From Candidatus Saccharimonadota bacterium (GTDB lineage Bacteria > Pseudomonadota > Gammaproteobacteria > Enterobacterales > Enterobacteriaceae), in assembly GCF_004296535.1 (NCBI RefSeq), contig NZ_AP018159.1, forward strand, positions 90,001-122,000: a stretch of 32,000 nucleotides of DNA, written 5' to 3'. Every line of letters begins with the position of its first letter. The stretch's first letter is position 1. A program made the translations under genes and the position numbers. The notes below the pieces were generated by a model, which searched no databases, had not been told where the DNA came from, and saw nothing but the letters and a program-made list of their open reading frames with translations. This document shows, piece after piece, positions 2 to 29,783 of the stretch.

Positions 2-1429
2 ATACCAATTACATTTTTTATAAATAAAAATAACAATGAGATTCATCCTAAAAGTTATCTATTTATAAAAAAAATTTCTAAAAAAATTAAAAAATATGGA
101 ATAGAATATTGGAATAATTTAAACATCAAAGATTTTTTAAAAAAAAAAGATTACAATTTATTTTATAAATCTAAAGATATTTTAGATGTTTGGTTTGATT
201 CTGGTTCTTCTTTAATATTTATGTCATCATTATATAAAAGAATGAAAAAATACAAAAGAGCAGATATATATTTAGAAGGTCAAGATCAATATAGGGGTTG
301 GTTTATGTCTTCTCTTTTAATAAATGCGGCTTTATTAAATAAAGAACCATATAAAACAGTTATAACTCATGGTTTTGTATTAGATAATTTAAATAAAAAA
401 ATGTCAAAATCATTAGGAAATGTTATAGATCCTAATATATTAATAAATAAATATGGAAGTGATGTTATAAGATTATGGATAGCGTCCTCCAATTATAATA
501 AAGATATAAAAATTTCTATAGAAACTTTAAATAGAGTATCAGATATATATAAAAAAATAAGAAACACATTAAGATTTTTAATATCTAATTTATATGATTT
601 TAATCCTAATATAAATTGTGTTAAATTTAATAATATGGTTAAAATAGATCAATGGATTATAAATAAACTATATTTTGTTCAAGAAAAAATTATGCATAAT
701 TATAATAATTATTTATTTAATAATGTTATAACTTTAATATCAAATTTTTGTATTATAAATTTAAGTTCTACATATTTTGAAATAATAAAAGATAGACAAT
801 ATATATTTAATAGTGATTCAAAATATAGAAGAAGTTCTCAAACAGCCATTTTTCATATATTAAAATCAATATCTATAATTATATCTCCAATATTATCATT
901 TATGTCTAATGAAATATACGACAATTTTATACCTAATAAAAAAAACAAATTAGTTTTTATTGAAAAATGGTATAAATTAAAAAGATTTAATAAAAATGAA
1001 AAATTTAATGAAGATTTTTGGAATATAATTTTTAATATAAAACATCAAATTAATATTATTTTAGAAGAAAAAATAAAAAAAAAGTATATACAAACATTTA
1101 TGGAAATGGATATTATATTATATATAATAAATAAAAAAAAATTTTTCAATAAAATAAATATTTTAAAAAATGAATTAAAATATATTTTTATAGTATCTCA
1201 TGTACTTTTAGTAAAATTAAAAAAAATTAATAATAATAATAATACTATTAATAATAATTTAAAATTCTCTAAAATAAATTTTATAAAAATAAAAACTTTT
1301 CACAATTTTTATAAAAAAAAATGTAATAGATGTTGGAATTTTTATAGAAAAAAATATATAAAAAATAAAATTTGTAAAAGATGTATAAATATAATTAATT
1401 ATAAAGAAGAAAAAAGATTTTTTGCATAA
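2..1429 (+). CDS. ileS: Isoleucine--tRNA ligase, C-terminal part (5' end outside window)
   Basis: Frame 2 is open from the window edge (IPITFFINKNNNEIHP...ILDVWFDSGSS), so the M at 221 in the ORF track is internal. It has a KMSKS loop (KKMSKSLGN) and a C-terminal CxxC...CxxC zinc knuckle (CNRCWN...CKRC) typical of bacterial IleRS. Confidence 0.95.
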   Translation: MPITFFINKNNNEIHPKSYLFIKKISKKIKKYGIEYWNNLNIKDFLKKKDYNLFYKSKDILDVWFDSGSSLIFMSSLYKRMKKYKRADIYLEGQDQYRGWFMSSLLINAALLNKEPYKTVITHGFVLDNLNKKMSKSLGNVIDPNILINKYGSDVIRLWIASSNYNKDIKISIETLNRVSDIYKKIRNTLRFLISNLYDFNPNINCVKFNNMVKIDQWIINKLYFVQEKIMHNYNNYLFNNVITLISNFCIINLSSTYFEIIKDRQYIFNSDSKYRRSSQTAIFHILKSISIIISPILSFMSNEIYDNFIPNKKNKLVFIEKWYKLKRFNKNEKFNEDFWNIIFNIKHQINIILEEKIKKKYIQTFMEMDIILYIINKKKFFNKINILKNELKYIFIVSHVLLVKLKKINNNNNTINNNLKFSKINFIKIKTFHNFYKKKCNRCWNFYRKKYIKNKICKRCINIINYKEEKRFFA

Positions 1430-2228: not shown

Positions 2229-3494
2229 TTAAATATTTATTTTATAACATTTATCTAGAATTTTAATATAATTATTATTTATATAGTTATCTATCATTTT
2301 TTTTATTAAATACATTGATTTACTTTTTAATATATATTCTTTTATAAAATTATCTTTTAAATATTCATCATAATTATAATATTCATATTCTTTTAAATAT
2401 ATAAAACCCCATTTATTTTTATATTCAAAAAAGTCTGTACACTTATTTTTTTTTATATTTTCTAAATAAATTTTGAATTTTTTATTTTTGTTAAAATGAT
2501 ATAAAAAATATTTTTTACAAATAATATTTTTGTAATTTTCATACATGTTATTATTTTTATAATTATTTAATATTTTTTTTTTTATACCATTAATATAATT
2601 TAAATTATTATCACTATTAACTTTATCATTTATTTCGTTATTATAAAAATAATCAAATGTAAATAATTTTATTTTATTTTTATTATTTATTTTTTTAATA
2701 GAATTAATTTTAATAAAATAAATAAAATCTGATATATATATTGGACCTATTATATTTTTATTATTATTATAATTTTTATTAATATTTAATTTTAAAATAT
2801 ATGGTAAATTATTAAAATAACAATTAAAATTTTTTACTTCAATAATATTATTTTTTTTATTATATTTTATTTTTTTGTTATTATTGTCTTCTAAATTTTT
2901 TATTATTTTATATATATCAAATTTATTTTTATCAAAATTATTATTTTTTATTTTTATTAAATCTAAATTATATGTATTAAATATATCATTAATTATTAAA
3001 TTATTTTCTCTATTTTTTTTAAAATCTAATATATCATTTTTATTTATTAAATTTATATTATATATTTTGTTTTTTATTATTTTATTAATTAATATCTTTT
3101 TTTTAATAAAGTTTTTATATTCTTCTATTTTTAAATTATTTTTATTTATATAATGTAAAAATTCTTTTTTATTTAAACATAAATTTTTTGAAATATTATT
3201 TAAATATTTATCAATTTTTATATCTATATTATTTATAATAATATTATTTTTAAAAATATCTTTTATTATCTTATTTATTAAAATTTTATTTAAAATAATA
3301 TTTTTAAAACTTAGATTATTATCATTATTTAAACTTTCTAAAGATTCAATTTTACAATATGATTCTAAATCATTACTTAATATTAAATTATTATTTATTA
3401 CTGCAATTATTTTATCATTATATATAATATCATTTGCAAAAGATTCTTTTATAAAAAGAAAAACTAATAAAAAAAAATATATAATATTATTCAT
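2229..3494 (-). CDS. surA: Periplasmic chaperone SurA, highly diverged
   Basis: 421 aa, close to E. coli SurA at about 428 aa. It has a hydrophobic N-terminal signal-like segment (IIYFFLLVFLFIKESFA). The motif DKIIAVINNNLILSNDLES resembles the SurA N-terminus DKVAAVVNNGVVLESD. Its position immediately upstream of rsmA is conserved. The parvulin signatures are not recognisable by eye. Confidence 0.7.
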   Translation of the reverse strand: MNNIIYFFLLVFLFIKESFANDIIYNDKIIAVINNNLILSNDLESYCKIESLESLNNDNNLSFKNIILNKILINKIIKDIFKNNIIINNIDIKIDKYLNNISKNLCLNKKEFLHYINKNNLKIEEYKNFIKKKILINKIIKNKIYNINLINKNDILDFKKNRENNLIINDIFNTYNLDLIKIKNNNFDKNKFDIYKIIKNLEDNNNKKIKYNKKNNIIEVKNFNCYFNNLPYILKLNINKNYNNNKNIIGPIYISDFIYFIKINSIKKINNKNKIKLFTFDYFYNNEINDKVNSDNNLNYINGIKKKILNNYKNNNMYENYKNIICKKYFLYHFNKNKKFKIYLENIKKNKCTDFFEYKNKWGFIYLKEYEYYNYDEYLKDNFIKEYILKSKSMYLIKKMIDNYINNNYIKILDKCYKINI

Positions 3495-8825: not shown

Positions 8826-8836
8826 TCTTTATATAG

Positions 8837-8908
8837 TAGGTAATATTGGACTTGAACCAATGACCCTCTCCTTGTAAAAGAGATGCTCTACCTCTGAGCT
8901 AATTACCT
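8837..8908 (-). tRNA. tRNA-Val (anticodon UAC)
   Basis: The reverse complement AGGTAATTAGCTCAGAGGTAGAGCATCTCTTTTACAAGGAGAGGGTCATTGGTTCAAGTCCAATATTACCTA has a 7-bp acceptor stem and anticodon loop TTTACAA. The Val-then-Lys order, divergent from gltX, mirrors E. coli valU..lysV/gltX. Confidence 0.93.
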
Positions 8909-10674: not shown

Positions 10675-11320
10675 TTAAAATATATAAAATATTATAATAT
10701 TTATTATAAAATTTATAATAATACTAAATAGTATATCAGTTAAATAATGAATTTTAAATATAACTCTAAAAATTAATAAAAATATTATTATAAAATTTAA
10801 TATAAATATAACTATAATATTTATATTTAATAAATTTTTATAATATATAAAATTAAATAATATATTATAAAATAATAATGTATGACCTGATGGAAAGGAA
10901 TAATTATTATTTTTAAATAAAATTTTTTTATTTATAAAATTAAATATTTTATTCAAAAAAATTATATTTTTAAAATAAAAAATATTTTTTTTTATATATA
11001 AAATATTATTTTCACTAGGTCTTTTTATTTTGAAAATATTTCTTATAAAAATTTTTAAAAAATGTTCTATTATATTTATTAAAATTATTTTATATATAAA
11101 AAAAATAAAATTTTTTTTATTTAAATATTTTTTAAAATAAAATATATTTATTATATATATAAATAATAAAAATATATAATTAAAAATATAAAAAAAAAAT
11201 ATTATAAATAAAATTTTTATTAAATAAATTTATAATAAAAAAAAGTATACTTATAACTAAAATATTTATAATATAAAATATAATAAAAATTAAAAAGAGC
11301 GTTTTATTTTTTAAAATCAT
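10675..11320 (-). pseudogene. PAP2-family membrane phosphatase (PgpB/YbjG-like), split by a +1 frameshift at a T10 tract; possibly rescued by slippage
   Basis: The downstream frame is open from 11229 to 10675. It carries all three PAP2 motifs: RNIFKIKRP (KxxxxxxRP-like), FPSGH and FRVIFKIHYLTD (SRxxxxxHxxxD-like). It has no ATG/GTG/TTG upstream of motif 1. The only ATG, at 11320, opens a different frame (MILKNKTLFLIFIIFYIINILVISILFF...) that stops at 11182..11180. The two frames overlap across the homopolymer at 11190..11199. Confidence 0.6.
11190..11199 (-). repeat. T10 homopolymer in mRNA sense (A10 on the + strand) at the PAP2 frame junction
   Basis: Read directly from the sequence: aaaaaaaaaa at 11190..11199. 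Losing one T joins the ATG frame to the PAP2 motif frame. Confidence 0.85.
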
Positions 11321-11330
11321 ATTATTTTTA

Positions 11331-13670
11331 TTAAGTTTTAAATATATCTTTAGTAAATGAATTACTTATAACATCTTTTATATTTTTTACTGGTAATATA
11401 TCTAAATTAGATATTATATTTTTATCAAAACTATATAAATTTTTTAAATTTTTATAAGGTATAATAACTTTTTTTATTCCGCCTCTTTTTGCTGCTAATA
11501 ATTTTTCTTTTAATCCACCAATAGGTAATACATCCCCTTGTAATGTAATTTCTCCTGTCATTGCAATATCTGATTTTATAGAAATATTAGTAAATGCAGA
11601 TATTAATGAAGTACAAATTGTTATACCAGCACTAGGTCCATCTTTTGGTATAGCTCCTTCTGGAGAATGAACATGTATATCATAATTATAATAATTAAAT
11701 TTTTTATTAATTTTATTTAATATATATCTCATTACAGTTAATGCTATTTTTATAGATTCTTGCATAACTTTTCCTAAAGATCCTGTATATATTAATTTTC
11801 CTTTACCTGGTACAAAAGATGATTCTATATATAATATTTCTCCTCCTAATTCTGTCCAAGCTAAACCTGTAGCTTTTCCTATAAAATTATCACTATCTTT
11901 TACTTTTTTATAATCAAATTTACTTATTCCTAAAAATTTTTTTAAATTATTTTTTGTTATTTTAATTAGTTTATTACTATTACTAATTAAAATTCTTTTT
12001 ACACATTTTCTAAAAATTTTAGATATTTCTCTTTCTAAATTTCTTAATCCTGATTCTTTCGTATAATTTCTTATTATTGATATAATTGCAGAATTTGATA
12101 TATTAATTTCGTTTGCTTTTAATGCATTTGATTTTAATTGTTTTTGAATTATATATTTGTTTACTATATTAATCTTTTCTGCTTCTGAATATCCACTTAT
12201 TTTTATTATCTCCATTCTATCTAATAATGTTTTAGATATATTCATAGAATTTGCTGTTGCTATAAACATTACATTTGATAAATCATAATCTATTTCCAAA
12301 TAGTGATCATTAAATTTTTTATTTTGTTCTGTATCTAATACTTCTAACAATGCTGAAGATGGATCGCCTCTAATATCAGATGACATTTTATCTATTTCGT
12401 CTAATAATATTAATGGATTTATAACTCCACATTTTGACATTTTTTGAATTATTTTTCCAGGCATAGATCCTATATATGTTCTTCTATGTCCTCTTATTTC
12501 AGCTTCATCTCTTAATCCTCCTAAAGATATTCTTTCAAATTTTCTTCCAGTAGATTTTGCTATAGAATGTCCTAAAGAAGTTTTTCCAACTCCAGGAGGA
12601 CCTATTAAACAAATTATTGGTCCAGATATTTTATTATTTCTATTTTGAACTGCTAGATATTCTAAAATTCTTTCTTTAACTTCATATAATCCATAATGAT
12701 TATTATCTAAAATATTTTTTGCATATTTTAAATCTTTTTTAATTTTACTTTTAGTTTTCCATGGTATAGATAAAATACAATCAATATAACTTCTAATTAC
12801 AGTAGATTCTGCAGAAATAGAAGACATAGTTTTTAATTTATTTAATTCATTTTCTAATTTATTTTTTATTTCTTTAGAAGATTTTAATAAATTTATTTTA
12901 TTTTTTATAATTTCATATTCATCTGGAGTATTATTTATTTCTCCTAATTCTTTTTGAATAGCTTTTATTTGTTCATTTAAATAATATTCTCTTTGACCTT
13001 TTTCCATTTGTTTTTTTATTCTATTTCTTATTTTTTTTTCTATATGTAATAATTCAATTTCATATTCTATATTTTTTATTAAAAATTCTAATCTTTTATT
13101 TAAGTTAATTTCTTCTAATATATATTGTTTATCTTTTACTTTTATAGGTATATTTGAAGCTATAGTATCTATTATTTTTGATTTATCTTCTATATTATTT
13201 ATAGAACCTATTATTTCTGGAGATATTTTTTTATTTAATTTGATATATGTTTCAAATTGATTAATTAAAGTTCTTATCATTACTTTATATTCTTTAGAAT
13301 TTGATTCATATGAATTTACTTCTGTTACATTTGCTTCAATATGTTCACCATTATTAATTAAATCATCTATATAAACTCTACTAATTCCTTCTATTAGTAT
13401 TTTTATAGTTCCATCTGGTAATTTTAATATTTGTAATATATTAGACATTGTTCCAGTTGAATATAAATTATTTTTATCAGCAGGATAATCTTCTATAGAT
13501 GATTTTTGCGTTACTAATATAATTTTTTTATCATTATTAATAGCTTTATTTAAAGATTTAATAGATTTTTCTCTTCCAACAAATAATGGAACTAACATAT
13601 TAGGATATATAACTATATCTCTTAGTGGTAATATTGGTAAAGTATATTTATTTTTATTTTTTTCATCCAT
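11331..13670 (-). CDS. lon: ATP-dependent Lon protease
   Basis: 779 aa and well conserved. It has Walker A GPPGVGKTSLG, the segment RISLGGLRDEAEIRGHRRTYIGSMPGKIIQ, the protease-domain motif PKDGPSAGITI containing the catalytic Ser, and GGLKEKLLAAKRGGIK. Confidence 0.98.
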   Translation of the reverse strand: MDEKNKNKYTLPILPLRDIVIYPNMLVPLFVGREKSIKSLNKAINNDKKIILVTQKSSIEDYPADKNNLYSTGTMSNILQILKLPDGTIKILIEGISRVYIDDLINNGEHIEANVTEVNSYESNSKEYKVMIRTLINQFETYIKLNKKISPEIIGSINNIEDKSKIIDTIASNIPIKVKDKQYILEEINLNKRLEFLIKNIEYEIELLHIEKKIRNRIKKQMEKGQREYYLNEQIKAIQKELGEINNTPDEYEIIKNKINLLKSSKEIKNKLENELNKLKTMSSISAESTVIRSYIDCILSIPWKTKSKIKKDLKYAKNILDNNHYGLYEVKERILEYLAVQNRNNKISGPIICLIGPPGVGKTSLGHSIAKSTGRKFERISLGGLRDEAEIRGHRRTYIGSMPGKIIQKMSKCGVINPLILLDEIDKMSSDIRGDPSSALLEVLDTEQNKKFNDHYLEIDYDLSNVMFIATANSMNISKTLLDRMEIIKISGYSEAEKINIVNKYIIQKQLKSNALKANEINISNSAIISIIRNYTKESGLRNLEREISKIFRKCVKRILISNSNKLIKITKNNLKKFLGISKFDYKKVKDSDNFIGKATGLAWTELGGEILYIESSFVPGKGKLIYTGSLGKVMQESIKIALTVMRYILNKINKKFNYYNYDIHVHSPEGAIPKDGPSAGITICTSLISAFTNISIKSDIAMTGEITLQGDVLPIGGLKEKLLAAKRGGIKKVIIPYKNLKNLYSFDKNIISNLDILPVKNIKDVISNSFTKDIFKT

Positions 13671-15070: not shown

Positions 15071-16831
15071 ATGTTAAATATAAAAAAATTTTTATTTGAT
15101 TTTATAAAAAATTTTTTAGCAAAAAAAAAAATAATTTATAATATAAATCTTATAAAAATAAAATTTATAAAATACAGAAAATTTGGTGATTATCAAATAT
15201 ATGGTATTAAAAACTTAGAAGATAAAATTAATAAAAAAAATAATTATTTATTTATAATAAATAATTTAAAATTAGAACTAAAAAAAATAAATTTTATTAA
15301 AGAAATAAATATAATAAATTTTAATTTTATAAATATTTTTTTAAAAAAAGAATGGATGGAAAAAGAATTAAAAAAAATATTAATTTCTAAAAGATTAAAT
15401 ATATCTAAAAAAAAAAATCAGAATAATATTGTAATCGATTATTCATCTCCTAATATGTCAAAAGAGATGCATGCTGGTCACTTAAGATCTTCTATACTAG
15501 GTGATTCATTTTTTAGAATATCAAAATTTTTAGGATATAATGTTATAAAAATTAATCATATAGGAGATTGGGGTATAAATTTTGGAATGATAATTAATGA
15601 AATAAAAATTAGAAATATAGAAAATAAAATATCTAATTTATCTATTTCAGATTTAGAATTAATATATATAAATTCTAAAAATAAATTTAATACAGATAAA
15701 AATTTTAAAATTAAATCTAATTATTACTTTAAACAATTAATTGATAATAACAAAAAATATGTAAAAATATGGAAATCAATTATAAATTTATCTACAAAAA
15801 ATAATGATAAAATTTATAAATTACTTGATTTAAAATTAAACAATAATGATATTTTAGGGGAAAGTTTTTATAAAAAATTCATACCATTTATAATTAAAGA
15901 TTTAAAAAATAAAAAAATAGCAATTAAAAAAAATAAATCTATTATAGCTCCATTAAGAAATTATAAAAATAAATTTGGGAAAATGATGAGTGTTGTACTT
16001 AGAAAAAAAAAAATTTATTTATATTCAATAACTGAAATAGCTTCTATAAGATATAGATGTAAATATTTATTTGCTGACAGAATAATATATTTTATAGATA
16101 AAAGACAGAAAGATCATTTATTATACTCATTACATATATCTAAAAAAGCAAATTATATAAATGAAAATGTTAGATTTGATCATTATAGTTTTGGGATGAT
16201 ATTAGATAATAATAAACAACCATTTAAAACAAGAAATAAAAATAATTTAAAATTAATAAAATTAATAAATAAATATATAGAAAAAACAAAAGAATTTATT
16301 ATAAATAAAAATAAATTATTATTAGATAATAAAAAAGAAATGGAAAATATTTCTAAAATTATAGCAATAGGATCTTTAAAATATTTTGATTTGTCAAAAA
16401 ATAGATTAACAGATTATATAATAGATTGGAATAAAATATTTTTATTAAATAATAATAAGTTAATATATATTTATTACTCATATATGAGAATAAATTCCAT
16501 TTTTAATAAAATAAATATAAAAAATTTATCAAAAATAAAATTTATAAAAAAATCAAATATTAATATAAGTAATAATAATGAGTTAAATATATCTATATTA
16601 ATAGTAAGATTTGAGGAAATTTTAGAAACTGTTATAAATTATGGTACATTTAATATATTATGTAATTATATATATGAATTATCAATAGAATTTACTAATT
16701 ACTATCATAACAATAATTTTTTATTATTAGAAAAAAATAAATATAATTCATTAAATTTAATATTATTGATATCTAAAATAATAAAAATTGGATTGTATTT
16801 CTTAGGAATTAAAATTCCTAAGAAAATTTAA
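15071..16831 (+). CDS. argS: Arginine--tRNA ligase
   Basis: The motif SSPNMSKEMHAGHLRSSILGDS is the ArgRS HIGH region. At 586 aa the length fits. Confidence 0.92.
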   Translation: MLNIKKFLFDFIKNFLAKKKIIYNINLIKIKFIKYRKFGDYQIYGIKNLEDKINKKNNYLFIINNLKLELKKINFIKEINIINFNFINIFLKKEWMEKELKKILISKRLNISKKKNQNNIVIDYSSPNMSKEMHAGHLRSSILGDSFFRISKFLGYNVIKINHIGDWGINFGMIINEIKIRNIENKISNLSISDLELIYINSKNKFNTDKNFKIKSNYYFKQLIDNNKKYVKIWKSIINLSTKNNDKIYKLLDLKLNNNDILGESFYKKFIPFIIKDLKNKKIAIKKNKSIIAPLRNYKNKFGKMMSVVLRKKKIYLYSITEIASIRYRCKYLFADRIIYFIDKRQKDHLLYSLHISKKANYINENVRFDHYSFGMILDNNKQPFKTRNKNNLKLIKLINKYIEKTKEFIINKNKLLLDNKKEMENISKIIAIGSLKYFDLSKNRLTDYIIDWNKIFLLNNNKLIYIYYSYMRINSIFNKINIKNLSKIKFIKKSNINISNNNELNISILIVRFEEILETVINYGTFNILCNYIYELSIEFTNYYHNNNFLLLEKNKYNSLNLILLISKIIKIGLYFLGIKIPKKI

Positions 16832-18372
16832 TTTTTATACTTTGAAGTGTATGAAAAATCTTTTAATCTAAAACCTAATGATAATAAAGATAATATATAA
16901 ATTAAGAATCCAAATAATATTATAAATATTAATCTAGATAATCTTGATAAAATTCCTCCTATTTCCCAATCAGGCATATATTCTAATATTATTATTAAAG
17001 ATAAAGACATAATAAATACAGATATTATTATTTTTTTAAAAAATTGTTTCCATCCATTTTTAGGAATAAATAATCCTTTTTTTATTAAATACCAATATAA
17101 TAAAGCTGAATTAAAACATGCTGTAATACCCATAGATAATGATAATCCAATATGTTCTAATTTTGCGATTAATATAAAGTTTAAAATTTGAGTTGCAAAA
17201 AAAGATATTAATGAAACTTTTAAAGGAGTTTTTGTATCTTGATGAGAATAAAAACTAGGAGTTAATATTTTAACTAATATAATACCAATTAAACCAATAG
17301 AATATGCTATTAAGGCTTTTTGAGTCATAATCGCATCAAAATAAGAAAATTTTCCATATTGAAACATAGAAAATACTATAGGTTTAGATAATATTATTAA
17401 TGCAAATGATATTGGAATAGATAGTATAAAACATAATCTTAACCCCCAATCTAATGATTTAGAATATTCTTCTTCATCTTTATTTGTTACGCTTCTAGAT
17501 AAAGAAGGAAATAATATAGTATTTAATGCTATTCCTAAAATTCCTGATGGAAACTCCATTATTCTATCAGCATAATACATCCATGATACAGATCCTGATG
17601 ATAAGAATGATGTAAATATAGTGTTAAATATTATAGACATTTGATGTATAGACATACTTATTAAAACAGGCCACATTTTATTAAACATAATCCATATTCC
17701 ATTATCATTTAATGTAAATTTAGGCAATATAAGCATATTTATATTTTTTAAGTATATTAATTGATATATTATCTGTAATATACCTCCAACTATAACAGAC
17801 CATGCTAATGATAAAACAGGAGGGTTAGATATTTTATTTGAAAATATAGTAAAAAATATCATACTTCCATTAAGAAAGATAGCTGAAAATGCAGGAATAA
17901 AAAACATGTTCCATGTATTTAATATTGCACTAAATATAGATGATAATGAAATTATTAATATAAAAGGAAATGTTATTCTTAATATTTTTGTACTTAATGA
18001 AAATTTAAAATCTGTATTAACAAATCCTGGAGCTGTAATTTTTAATATATTTGGAGAAAATACAATTCCTAAAAAAATTATTATTGATAAAGATACTATT
18101 AACATTCCTAATACATAACTAATAAATTTTTTTGTAGAATCTAAATCAAAATTTTTTTTATAATTAATTAAAATAGGAATAAATACTTGAAAAAAAACAC
18201 CTTCAGCAAATATTCTTCTTAATAAATTAATTAACTTAAAAGAAATAAAAAATGCATCTGTCATTACAGTAGCACCAAAAGTTCTAGCTATAATTATATC
18301 CCTAATAAATCCTAAAATTTTAGAAATAAAAGTAGCTAAACTAACATATATCAGGGGTTTCAGTAAATTCAT
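16828..18372 (-). CDS. murJ: Lipid II flippase MurJ (MviN)
   Basis: The N-terminus MNLLKPLIYVSLATFISKILGFIRDIIIARTFGATVMTDAFFISFKLINLLRRIFAEG is nearly collinear with E. coli MurJ. It is a 514-aa polytopic membrane protein. Confidence 0.95.
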   Translation of the reverse strand: MNLLKPLIYVSLATFISKILGFIRDIIIARTFGATVMTDAFFISFKLINLLRRIFAEGVFFQVFIPILINYKKNFDLDSTKKFISYVLGMLIVSLSIIIFLGIVFSPNILKITAPGFVNTDFKFSLSTKILRITFPFILIISLSSIFSAILNTWNMFFIPAFSAIFLNGSMIFFTIFSNKISNPPVLSLAWSVIVGGILQIIYQLIYLKNINMLILPKFTLNDNGIWIMFNKMWPVLISMSIHQMSIIFNTIFTSFLSSGSVSWMYYADRIMEFPSGILGIALNTILFPSLSRSVTNKDEEEYSKSLDWGLRLCFILSIPISFALIILSKPIVFSMFQYGKFSYFDAIMTQKALIAYSIGLIGIILVKILTPSFYSHQDTKTPLKVSLISFFATQILNFILIAKLEHIGLSLSMGITACFNSALLYWYLIKKGLFIPKNGWKQFFKKIIISVFIMSLSLIIILEYMPDWEIGGILSRLSRLIFIILFGFLIYILSLLSLGFRLKDFSYTSKYKN

Positions 18373-19794: not shown

Positions 19795-20142
19795 AATATC
19801 TCCTAAGTATTTTCCACCTAATAAATGTATATGAAAATGAAAAATTTTTTGACAAGCATCTTTATTACAATTTGATATTAATCTATAACCAGTTTCTGAT
19901 ATTTTATATAATTTAGAAATTCTAGAAGCAATATAAAAACAATGGCCTATTATAATTCTATCTTTATAATTAATATCATTTATAGTTTTTATTTTTTTAT
20001 TAGTAACTATCAGTAAATGTATAGGAGCTAATGGATATTTATCTTTAAAAATTGTTATTAATTTATCTTGAAATACTATTTCTGAATATATTAATCTATT
20101 AATTATTTTATAAAAAATATCATTATTATTATTTTTAATCAT
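19789..20142 (-). CDS. hinT: HIT-family purine nucleoside phosphoramidase
   Basis: 117 aa. It has the histidine triad HFHIHLLGG, plus IFYKIINR and GYRLISN. It is collinear with E. coli HinT. Confidence 0.88.
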   Translation of the reverse strand: MIKNNNNDIFYKIINRLIYSEIVFQDKLITIFKDKYPLAPIHLLIVTNKKIKTINDINYKDRIIIGHCFYIASRISKLYKISETGYRLISNCNKDACQKIFHFHIHLLGGKYLGDIL

Positions 20143-21091
20143 TTTTAGTTTTAAATATATATTTATCTAATAATAAAATATTATATAATAAAATATTATT
20201 TTTTATATAAGAATTAATATCTAAATAATATTTATCATAAATAATAAAATTATTTAATATTATAAATAAAGAATCAATATTCATCTTTTTTGATAATTTA
20301 TATATTAACCTAAATTTATCTTTATTAAATTTTAATTTAATATTTAATTTAAAATAGATTACATCTATAATTATAAGAATAAATAATTTTAATATAAAAT
20401 CCTCTTTATTTTGTAAAAAAAAATTAAATAAATTATCAATTTTCTTTTCTTTTAAAAAAAAATTGATATTATAAAATAATTCATTTCTTTTATTTTTAAA
20501 TTTTTTTATTATATTAAATATATTAAAAATAGATTTTTTTTCTAAATTATTTATTATTTTCATTTCTATTTTATTTATAAAAAATTTTTTTTTTAAAAAA
20601 TTAAATATTTTTTTTTTATCTAAATTACTAATATAGATTTTATATGATTTATTTAAAATATATAAATTAAAATTTTCTAATTTTAATATTTTAAATATAA
20701 ATAATATATTTTTTTTATTTAAATATTTAGATATAATAATTAAATATTTAAAATTTATATTTGAAGTATTTATATAAATTAATATTTTTTTATATTGATA
20801 AATATATTTATATAAATTATAAATTTCTGATTCATTTTTGTAATCTAAATTTAATATAATATAATTATTATTAACATTATCTGTATTTTTTTTTAAACAA
20901 TTATTACATAAATTACAATATGTATTATTATTTTTATTAATACATATGAACCATTTAACTATTTTTTTAAATAAAATTAATCCATCATAATTAGAATTTA
21001 AAACCAATATAATAGAGTTTATATTATATTTTGAAATTACATAGATAATATTATTATATGTATTTTTATAAAAATTAAAATTTATATTCAC
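20135..21091 (-). CDS. holB: DNA polymerase III delta-prime subunit, highly diverged
   Basis: 318 aa with a GTG start. The zinc-module-like CNLCNNCLKKNTDNVNNNYIIL corresponds to E. coli CGHCRGCQLMQAGTHPDYYTL. Its position between acpP and hinT matches the E. coli order acpP..tmk-holB..hinT. Confidence 0.65.
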   Translation of the reverse strand: MNINFNFYKNTYNNIIYVISKYNINSIILVLNSNYDGLILFKKIVKWFICINKNNNTYCNLCNNCLKKNTDNVNNNYIILNLDYKNESEIYNLYKYIYQYKKILIYINTSNINFKYLIIISKYLNKKNILFIFKILKLENFNLYILNKSYKIYISNLDKKKIFNFLKKKFFINKIEMKIINNLEKKSIFNIFNIIKKFKNKRNELFYNINFFLKEKKIDNLFNFFLQNKEDFILKLFILIIIDVIYFKLNIKLKFNKDKFRLIYKLSKKMNIDSLFIILNNFIIYDKYYLDINSYIKNNILLYNILLLDKYIFKTKND

Positions 21092-21110
21092 AAAATATTA
21101 TATATATATT

Positions 21111-21350
21111 TTATTTATTTAAAATTTTATTTAAATAATTTTTAATTTCATAGAAATTATCTAATTTATCTACATATTCATCTGGTATCACTATATTAAA
21201 TTCATCTTCTATATCCATAATTATTTCTATTATATCTAATGAATCTATATTTAATTCTTTTTTAAAAGATTTTATTAAAATTAATTTATCATGAGTTATA
21301 TTAAATTTATTTGATATAATATTTTTTATTTTTTGTTCTATTTTATTCAT
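21111..21350 (-). CDS. acpP: Acyl carrier protein
   Basis: 79 aa. The phosphopantetheine-attachment motif is DSLDIIEIIMDIEDEFNIVIPDE. Confidence 0.93.
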   Translation of the reverse strand: MNKIEQKIKNIISNKFNITHDKLILIKSFKKELNIDSLDIIEIIMDIEDEFNIVIPDEYVDKLDNFYEIKNYLNKILNK

Positions 21351-27900: not shown

Positions 27901-28547
27901 TTAAAATTTATTTTTTTGTATATATATATAATAAATATTATTATTTTTTAATATACTTTTTTTTTCAAAATTTGTATTTATAAATATATTTTTATAACAA
28001 ATTATATTTTTTATAAAAAAATTTAATTTATCTAATAAATAATTAAAATTATCTAATATATACTCAAAATAATTTAATGAATCTGTTATTATATGTATAG
28101 TACCATTAAATTCTAATATTTTTAAAAGTTGTTTTATAAATATTTTATTTATTAATCTTCTTTTTTTATGTTTATTTTTATTCCATGGATCTGGAAAAAA
28201 TATTCTTATTTCATAAATAGAATTATTTTTTATATATTTAGAAATTATTTTTTTTGCATCACATTTTATTATTTTAATATTATTTATTTTATATAAATTA
28301 ATATTTTTAATAAAATTACCTATTCCAAATAAATAATTATCTATTCCTAAAAAGTTATTTTCTTTTTTATTAATAGAATCTTTTATCATATATGATCCAT
28401 TTCCAAAACCTATTTCTAATATAATTTTATTGTTTTTATTTAAAAAAAAATTATTTAAATTATTTTTTTTTTTATATTATTAATAGATATTTTTTGTATA
28501 AATTTTTTTATATAATATTTTTGAGATTTGGTAATTCTATTTCTCAT
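27901..28547 (-). pseudogene. trmB: tRNA (guanine46-N7)-methyltransferase, split by a -1 frameshift at an A11 tract; possibly rescued by slippage
   Basis: The downstream frame, open from 28476, contains the SAM motif ILEIGFGNGSY followed by FFPDPWNKNKHKKRRLI, but its first start codon (28389) lies after the SAM motif. An ATG at 28547 opens MRNRITKSQKYYIKKFIQKISINNIKKKII*, which corresponds to E. coli RQGRLTKGQ and stops at 28457..28455. The two frames meet in the homopolymer at 28463..28473. The gene is divergent from mltC, as trmB/mutY-yggX-mltC are in E. coli. Confidence 0.7.
28463..28473 (-). repeat. A11 homopolymer in mRNA sense (T11 on the + strand) at the trmB frame junction
   Basis: Read directly from the sequence: t x11 at 28463..28473. 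One extra A in the mRNA yields IKKKNNLNNFFLNKNNKIILEIGFG. Confidence 0.85.
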
Positions 28548-28718: not shown

Positions 28719-29783
28719 ATGTATAAAACTTTTATAATTGTTATAAATTTGATGTATATTACAATGAAAATATCAAATAGTATTAATAATTATAAATTAT
28801 ATTATACTAGTTTAATAAGTATAAATAAATTCAAAAAATATAATTATTATATATGGAAAGAATTTTCAATTGATGATGACTCTTTTGTTACATATAAAAA
28901 TAATTTTTTAATTAGAAATTATATTGATTTAAATAATAAAAATATAACAATAAATTGTATATGTAAAAATAAAAAAATAGCATTAAAAATTATTACAAAT
29001 GAAATAAAAAATATATTTTCATTAAAAAATATATTATATTATTTTTATAATAAAAAAATTAATATAGATAGATATATATATATTAAAAGTTTTTTATTAG
29101 ACTATTCAGATTATTTAGAAAATATTAAAAATAATTTAGAAAAATTTACTGAAATTCTATTAAGTAAAAAAATTTACTATATTAGAAGTAATGGTAAAAA
29201 TATGTATACGTTAAAAATTAATTTAATAAAAAATATAGATAATAAAAACGATTTAATAAATATTATTAAATTAATATCAAATAAATATAATATAGATTAT
29301 TTATTAATACTATCAATTATAAAAGCTGAATCTAATTTTAATAAATTTGCTATTAGTAAATATGGAGCTATTGGATTAATGCAAATAATAGAAAACAAAT
29401 CATGTGCAGATGTTTTAAAAGTATTTAATAAGAAAAAAAAAATAAGTGTAGAATGTTTATTTAATGAAAAAAATAATATAGATATGGGTGTTGCATATAT
29501 ATATATATTAAAGAATATTTATTTAAGTAAAATAAAAAATTTAATATCATTAAGATATTTAATAATATCTTCATATAATGGAGGCACTAATTCTATATTA
29601 AAAATTTTTTCTAATGATTTTAATGAATCAATAAATATAATAAACAATATGAGTAATGATGATGTATATAATTTTATTATAAATCATCATCCATCTGAAG
29701 AAACTAAAAAATATTTAAAAAAAGTTAATAGATTATATATTAATTATAAAAATTTAGAATTCAATAAAAAATTATGTATTTAA
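28719..29783 (+). CDS. mltC: Membrane-bound lytic murein transglycosylase C
   Basis: 354 aa against about 359 aa in E. coli. It has the SLT catalytic motif IIKAESNFNKFAISKYGAIGLMQI. The C-terminal SSYNGGTNSILKIFSND...IINNMSNDDVYNFIINHHPSEETKKYLKKVN is collinear with E. coli MltC (TAYNGGAGSVLRVFSNDK...[28 protein letters not shown]). Confidence 0.9.
   Translation: MYKTFIIVINLMYITMKISNSINNYKLYYTSLISINKFKKYNYYIWKEFSIDDDSFVTYKNNFLIRNYIDLNNKNITINCICKNKKIALKIITNEIKNIFSLKNILYYFYNKKINIDRYIYIKSFLLDYSDYLENIKNNLEKFTEILLSKKIYYIRSNGKNMYTLKINLIKNIDNKNDLINIIKLISNKYNIDYLLILSIIKAESNFNKFAISKYGAIGLMQIIENKSCADVLKVFNKKKKISVECLFNEKNNIDMGVAYIYILKNIYLSKIKNLISLRYLIISSYNGGTNSILKIFSNDFNESINIINNMSNDDVYNFIINHHPSEETKKYLKKVNRLYINYKNLEFNKKLCI

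Follow-up and report, generated by a model that had tools for sequence, protein, structure and literature searches.

The window examined here is a stretch of 32,000 nucleotides (nt) from a 219,841-bp contig at NCBI (genome about 220 kb). On its minus strand, positions 10675-11320 come directly after the lon gene. The public annotation of this locus consists of a single open reading frame (ORF) of 93 amino acids (aa) with a TTG start. The locus contains a gene of the PAP2 phosphatase superfamily, whose reading frame probably changes at a run of ten T. The upstream and downstream frames are referred to as frame A and frame B, and the conceptual product obtained by removing one T is referred to as the repaired protein.

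Reading frames downstream of lon

The features of the locus, in the order in which they are read, are as follows.

11331..11333, minus strand: TAA stop of lon (coding sequence 13670..11331), with a 10-nt spacer before the phosphatase ATG
11200..11320, minus strand: frame A up to the T tract, ATG plus 40 codons, the sole stop-free frame there
11183..11229, minus strand: overlap of frames A and B, 47 nt in which both are open and to which any frame-restoring event is confined
11190..11199, minus strand: T10 run, read as A10 on the plus strand, where the one extra T presumably lies
11180..11182, minus strand: TAA stop of frame A, preceded by UAU UUU, with a U5 run at 11186..11182
10678..11189, minus strand: frame B downstream of the tract, coding for residues 44-214 of the repaired protein and including all three PAP2 motifs (C1, C2 and C3)
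10675..10956, minus strand: the publicly annotated 93-aa ORF, TTG start at 10956, without motif C1, stop at 10677..10675

Frame A starts at the ATG at 11320 and has 46 sense codons before its TAA (MILKNKTLFLIFIIFYIINILVISILFFIINLFNKNFIYNIFFLYF). Its stop-free span is open from 11365, and this ATG is the first start codon therein. Frame A is the only open frame from the lon stop to the tract, and its ATG is the only canonical start available. Judged by the codon usage of the window, it scores best of the three frames in 11200..11320. The product begins with MILKNK. The next 27 residues are hydrophobic and uncharged, and they would form the first transmembrane helix (TM1) of the repaired protein. 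Since only 10 nt separate the lon stop and the ATG, lon and the phosphatase gene are probably co-transcribed.

Frame B is stop-free from 11229 to 10678 and comprises 184 sense codons. There is no ATG, GTG or TTG in it before the TTG at 10956, and hence none before motif C1. The T10 run is the only long homopolymer in the overlap of the two frames. A tract of T9 or T12 would join frames A and B, and removal of one T from T10 gives 214 codons. The initial annotation of this DNA had drawn the same picture: an ATG at 11320 after the lon stop, a hydrophobic N-terminus, a stop at 11182..11180, no start codon in frame B before the first motif, both frames open over 11229-11183 with the T10 inside, and a protein of about 214 aa upon loss of one T. 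These coordinates were borne out. Its figure of 185 open codons for 11229..10675 has the right span, but it counts the stop.

The chance of such an arrangement was estimated from the local base composition. The probability of 184 codons without a stop is about 6e-10, and the 40 codons between the ATG and the tract would be open with a probability of about 0.01. Runs of at least 10 lie wholly inside 2.8% of 47-nt windows. The two-frame arrangement is not plausibly due to chance.

Motifs, architecture and composition of the PAP2 protein

The repaired protein matches PF01569 (PAP2) with 40.9 bits against a gathering cutoff of 27.2 (E = 2e-10). The same result is obtained with frame B alone, and the 93-aa fragment reaches 46 bits. 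The profile search that the initial annotation had proposed for the repaired protein is thus passed. The match spans profile positions 47-124 of 130, i.e. C2 to C3, and it is limited to these two motifs because a long insert separates C1. In a MAFFT alignment of the repaired protein with 11 distant PAP2 proteins, R100, P101, S141-F-P-S-G-H146, R185, H191, and D195 are invariant. The three motifs lie as follows.

11017..11043, minus strand: motif C1, R93-NIFKIK-R100-P101 (RNIFKIKRP, residues 93-101), R100 and P101 invariant in the alignment
10882..10893, minus strand: motif C2, P143-S-G-H146, invariant in the alignment
10735..10770, minus strand: motif C3, F184-R185-x5-H191-x3-D195 (residues 184-195, FRVIFKIHYLTD), R, H, and D invariant in the alignment

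The canonical C1 motif is K-x6-R-P (the Stukey and Carman signature), and the canonical C3 motif is S-R-x5-H-x3-D. The motif gaps are within the canonical ranges, with 41 residues between C1 and C2 (allowed 12-54) and 37 between C2 and C3 (allowed 31-54). The C3 Ser is replaced by Phe (F184), in a column where the aligned proteins have S, G, T, and A. In this base composition, an R-P pair would precede PSGH at a permitted distance by chance with a probability of about 2e-4, which indicates that frame B upstream of the annotated start truly belongs to the enzyme. The gene at 10675-11320 is a genuine PAP2-superfamily gene. As the initial annotation had held, the 93-aa TTG ORF at 10675..10956 is an under-call, since motif C1 lies upstream of its start. 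The public record thus carries a fragment without one of the three catalytic motifs, where a 214-codon PAP2 phosphatase with a homopolymer frameshift should be annotated.

The AlphaFold2 model of the repaired protein is all-helical (pLDDT 79.7, pTM 0.67), with a core at pLDDT 86-94 and the first 45 residues at 65-74. Three helices precede C1 (residues 3-32 at pLDDT 65-74, 48-65, and 68-96), and two lie between C1 and C2 (101-115 and 117-134), where the insert is modelled at low confidence (pLDDT 51-62). The Foldseek search against the PDB returned PAP2 proteins in 33 of 34 matches; the exception stands next to last, with a probability of 0.02. The top three matches are E. coli PgpB (5jwy and 8bm3) and B. 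subtilis PgpB (5jki), with probabilities of 0.95-0.97 over 164-172 columns and TM-scores of 0.45-0.48. Their E-values are weak (0.2-0.3).

The E. coli PgpB (phosphatidylglycerophosphatase B, an undecaprenyl-diphosphate phosphatase; 4PX7, 5JWY, 8BM3) and the B. subtilis PgpB/YodM (5JKI) belong to the same superfamily and have the C1-C3 motifs. The C2 motif is PSGH in both PgpB and the repaired protein, whereas YbjG has PSDH. The E. coli PgpB residues K97, RP 104-105, PSGH 160, and SR 200 compare with R93, RP 100-101, PSGH 143, and FR 184 in the repaired protein. The C1-C2 insert is long in both (41 residues in the repaired protein, 54 in PgpB) and is predicted to be helical in the repaired protein, as in PgpB; the C2-C3 gap is 37 versus 36 residues. 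However, the repaired protein has hardly any pairwise similarity to PgpB (7 bits, not above the level of YbjG or LpxT). The C1 Lys is changed to Arg and the C3 Ser to Phe, the C-terminal tail has 19 versus 43 residues, the length is 214 versus 254 aa, and 89% of the repaired protein consists of six amino acids.

The small PAP2 phosphatases of the YbjG/BcrC/LpxE type have a similar size (about 180-215 aa), and their expected role is the same, namely lipid-carrier recycling in a peptidoglycan-making cell. The nearest database matches of the repaired protein are of this type, and one is named as an undecaprenyl-diphosphatase. However, in these enzymes C1 and C2 are only about 15-20 residues apart (18 in YbjG), and the repaired protein has an extra insert of about 25 residues. 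Their RP pair also lies nearer the N-terminus (82-83 in YbjG, compared with 100-101 here). The PgpB-like position of this pair in the repaired protein depends on the inclusion of frame A. Pairwise HMMER comparisons with E. coli PgpB, YbjG, and LpxT gave 6-8 bits each, with no discrimination among subfamilies. As to the initial label of YbjG/PgpB type, the architecture leans towards PgpB, and the sequence cannot narrow the subfamily.

The predicted topology would place MILKNK inside, followed by TM1, a short outside loop with the tract, TM2, KKYLNKKN inside, TM3, and C1 outside. This layout would have a cytoplasmic N-terminus, three TM helices before C1, an active site on the periplasmic side, and a helical C1-C2 insert of about 41 residues. 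From family knowledge, the likely function would be the dephosphorylation of undecaprenyl diphosphate, of phosphatidylglycerophosphate, or of both. The cell still makes peptidoglycan and an outer membrane, as indicated by murJ, an MltC-like transglycosylase, a weak SurA match, and acpP; therefore, it needs such a phosphatase. The initial annotation had listed murJ, murB, and mltC as kept; murJ and the MltC-like gene are present in the window, but murB is not among its ORFs of at least 80 aa.

These features also bear on whether a frameshift is needed at all. Translation could begin in frame B at a non-canonical start (ATT or ATA near 11229..11190). The product would then have about 170-184 aa and two helices ahead of C1, and frame A would be a chance ORF or a separate small peptide. 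Some database PAP2 proteins do have short N-termini, such as P0004 (156 aa) and P0009 (158 aa); moreover, frame A has no family match, and its part of the model is of moderate confidence only. However, frame B offers no ATG, GTG, or TTG before C1, and frame A would be open by chance in only about 1% of cases, with its ATG directly after lon. Frame A also restores the PgpB-like distance from the N-terminus to the RP pair. By inspection, it places MILKNK and KKYLNKKN on the same, presumably cytoplasmic, side, which is consistent with the positive-inside rule. A start within frame B is thus considered very improbable.

The base composition of the gene is extreme. Its G+C content is 5.4%, similar to the intergenic DNA (2-9%) and below all other genes of the window (7.5-21.5%, with murJ at 21.5%). 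The residues I, F, N, L, K, and Y make up 88.8% of the repaired protein, compared with 52-82% in the other window genes. Gly and Asp occur once each, Pro twice, and His and Arg three times each, and almost all of these residues belong to the catalytic motifs. Codons with any G or C number 29 of 214, and in frame B they fall mostly on motif residues: E85, H86, R93, F96, R100, P101, S102, E103, L122, S141, P143, S144, G145, H146, T147, V170, R185, V186, H191, T194, D195, L197, and S199. Near-total drift to A+T at all but the catalytic residues, with no stop, suggests long-standing purifying selection on a minimal active site. The signature is that of purifying selection and not of an old pseudogene, and the gene is not decayed. 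The repaired protein is a natural membrane enzyme of near-minimal alphabet, and this amino-acid economy is its most unusual aspect. It shows how far a membrane enzyme may drift to I, F, N, L, K, and Y without loss of its active-site residues, and these are thereby marked as the essential ones.

The presumed T10 break and its possible rescue

A further gene of the window is broken at a homopolymer, in agreement with the initial annotation, which had counted another such frameshift in the 32 kb. The trmB gene (tRNA m7G46 methyltransferase, 27901..28547, minus strand) is split at an A11 run (28473..28463). The frame from its ATG at 28547 stops two codons past the A11, and the continuing frame opens one codon before it. 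With one A added, trmB encodes 215 aa and passes TIGR00091 with 130.1 bits against 112.65 (profile positions 4-192). The 162-aa ORF alone scores 105.1 bits, below the cutoff, and does not contain the LEIGFGNG SAM-binding motif. Since trmB is broken exactly at its A11, a homopolymer is a credible break site in the PAP2 gene too, and the indel probably lies in the T10 itself. The two corrections have opposite signs: trmB needs +1 or -2, and the PAP2 gene needs -1 or +2. The A10 run in ileS (139..148) was considered as another frameshift and rejected, as it is in frame.

The explanation that we favour, at roughly even chances, is a real frameshift in a PAP2 gene that is still under selection, with some full-length product made through slippage. 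The deposited frame would be interrupted by one extra T in the T10, 42 codons into a gene of 214 codons. Because the gene is not decayed, the full-length protein would still be made, from a minority of the messages. Three routes may be proposed. The RNA polymerase could slip on the A10 template, with a deletion of 1 nt or an insertion of 2 nt. The ribosome could slip by +1 on the U run or at the UUU-UAA "shifty stop", where the P-site tRNA-Phe on the U5 run (11186..11182) could re-pair one base downstream, into frame B. Finally, the tract length might vary among genome copies.

Such events are known from other reduced genomes. In Blochmannia and Buchnera, homopolymer frameshifts occur in otherwise intact genes, and full-length transcripts arise through slippage (Tamas et al. 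2008, as cited in PMC3017870; Williams and Wernegreen 2010). Earlier work cited in PMC3017870 obtained about 30% full-length transcripts by slippage. The PAP2 gene likewise has what is probably a single indel in an A/T run of at least 9 in a reduced, AT-rich genome. It is otherwise in frame and apparently conserved, and more than one gene is affected. However, the correction of -1 or +2 that it would need is in the less common direction (PMC5574713). The density of homopolymer-broken genes is also higher, with 2 of about 27 in the window, compared with 8 of about 580 in Blochmannia vafer (PMC3017870), and the genome of the window is far more AT-rich (about 14% G+C). This kind of event is already well known. 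The PAP2 gene adds one more case, or two with trmB, and the current understanding is unchanged.

The end of frame A also resembles the prfB-type +1 frameshifting at shifty stops, as it ends with UUU UAA in a U run and allows perfect re-pairing of tRNA-Phe into frame B. However, frame A has neither an upstream Shine-Dalgarno-like stimulator nor a downstream structure. Such a motif arises by chance in a stretch of 95% A+T, and the UUU-UAA shifty stop may be accidental here.

Several observations weigh against a slippage-rescued PAP2 gene. In the protein, the canonical C1 Lys is replaced by Arg (R93), so that the complete triad reported by the initial annotation stands in its order and spacing but not in its first C1 residue. 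This Lys is not universal, since E. coli YbjG has Gly there and one of the aligned proteins (P0006) has Ser. The only NCBIfam match is the PgpB equivalog NF007975, at 15.1 bits where 261 are required; on this ground the protein is called PgpB-like in its architecture but is not assigned to PgpB itself. Frame A showed no detectable homology of its own in family searches. No PAP2 orthologue that could show a conserved frameshift or place the indel was found in the collections searched. Regarding the mechanism, homopolymer slippage in Buchnera consists mostly of insertions (151 of 157 insertions in homopolymers versus 16 of 57 deletions), and most insertions overall are single-nucleotide (PMC5574713). 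The required -1 or +2 is the less common direction, and transcriptional rescue would thus be inefficient. No stimulatory RNA structure was detected downstream of the tract (z = 0.18).

The T10 might also be no real or no common allele. The tract may have been miscounted in sequencing or assembly, or the consensus may come from a mixed population, with T9 and an intact gene as the actual or prevailing state. The PAP2 gene has no other lesion and keeps its catalytic codons, and both broken genes are otherwise pristine and break only at runs of at least 10, the class most prone to length miscalls. Published genomes of a like kind are Nanopore assemblies polished with short reads (PMC8248872, PMC10654072), and in a weevil symbiont an ileS frameshift is present in one assembly but not in another (PMC8248872). 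However, the intact genes of the window contain 39 in-frame runs of at least 9 (17 of at least 10 and 22 of length 9) and dozens of length 8, which suggests a well-polished consensus and an assembly that is generally sound at homopolymers. In addition, a surplus base in the PAP2 gene stands against a missing base in trmB, which a one-directional platform bias would not produce. A miscounted or polymorphic tract is therefore regarded as rather doubtful.

Alternatively, the gene might be a very recent pseudogene, in which the extra T is inactivating, no full-length product is made, and decay is still invisible, while BacA/UppP or PgpA covers the function. The frameshift is indeed present in the deposited sequence, and a G+C content at the intergenic level points to little constraint beyond the motifs. 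In AT-rich symbionts, homopolymer indels are typically the first step of gene inactivation (PMC3017870), and transcriptional rescue in the direction needed is of the rarer kind (PMC5574713). Judging roughly by the proportion of codons that a single substitution would turn into a stop, about 3-5% of neutral divergence would pass before a stop becomes likely. On the other side, about 11% of random codons here are stops, so the downstream frame of 171 codons would stay open only briefly without selection. Two broken but otherwise pristine genes in 32 kb of an otherwise static-looking 220-kb genome would also be a coincidence. Furthermore, the kept, well-conserved MurJ (54% identity to those of free-living relatives) indicates that the cell must recycle undecaprenyl diphosphate. 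Recent inactivation is thus judged unlikely. The impairment of an envelope-lipid recycling step, as put forward in the initial annotation, goes beyond the evidence, as the gene looks selected and not decayed.

A more far-reaching form of the slippage-rescue explanation may be offered tentatively. The only PAP2 lipid-carrier/phospholipid phosphatase of this 220-kb symbiont might be permanently out of frame and made solely by recoding at the U10 tract, through a transcriptional -1/+2 slip or a +1 ribosomal slip at UUU-UAA. If so, homopolymer infidelity would be an obligatory, dose-setting step in the expression of an envelope enzyme. This enzyme would have a near-minimal alphabet, with AT saturation nearly everywhere except at the catalytic residues. 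Whether the gene is on, off, or leaky bears on the envelope upkeep of a minimal symbiont.

Relatives and genomic setting

Relatives of the PAP2 gene were searched at several levels. The word-indexed search of 5.8 billion proteins returned one weak match only, and the exhaustive HMMER search (1.84 billion representatives) returned only the 93-aa fragment itself and 14 distant PAP2 proteins. The metagenome scan for relatives found none, and an exact look-up of the Lon of the window on contigs had none on record. This Lon shares at most 66% identity with any database protein, with best matches in Stammera and other insect symbionts; the MurJ shares at most 55%, with best matches in free-living Enterobacterales. 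A scan of a genome collection with Lon found Stammera at 61-64% identity. Stammera was rejected as a source of orthologues, as its synteny is different (clpP-clpX-lon-tRNA-Arg-folD-cysS), no PAP2 gene adjoins lon, and TGA encodes Trp. In Candidatus Stammera capleta, lon has TGA at every conserved Trp position and is open only in genetic code 4. The organism of the window differs from Stammera both in this gene order and in its use of the standard code, in which Trp is TGG (55 TGG codons and one TGA stop in the window).

The genome is tiny, extremely AT-rich, and of the insect-symbiont type. The window has about 14-15% G+C on average, and its gene set and best matches are Enterobacterales-like. 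The genes identified are ileS, rsmA, a weak SurA match, pmbA, ptsI, ptsH, ligA, gltX, lon, dnaQ, rnhA, argS, murJ, mnmA, hinT, holB, acpP, rluC, rne, asnS, rpiA, pgk, trmB, an SLT-domain MltC-like gene, and mnmG. Those related to the envelope are as follows.

16828..18372: murJ
28719..29783: SLT-domain MltC-like gene
2229..3494: weak SurA_N match
About 21100..21340, minus strand: acpP (79 aa; Pfam PP-binding, DSLD motif), between holB and rluC

The acpP gene is just under the 80-aa ORF cutoff, so the apparent gap of 460 nt between holB and rluC is not empty. Both holB (20135..21091; 7.5% G+C, GTG start) and the SurA-like ORF (8.4% G+C) have an AT saturation nearly that of the PAP2 gene, and they are barely recognisable in the profile search. 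By comparison, murJ and lon have more than 20% G+C. This contrast suggests very wide differences in constraint among neighbouring genes.

One tRNA gene of the window (8836..8908, minus strand) was called as tRNA-Cys with anticodon ACA by ARAGORN. In the canonical geometry, with a single base separating the D stem from the anticodon stem and a variable loop of 5 nt, its anticodon loop is UUUACAA, which indicates a tRNA-Val(UAC). This gene adjoins a tRNA-Lys(UUU), similar to the lysT-valT cluster of E. coli.

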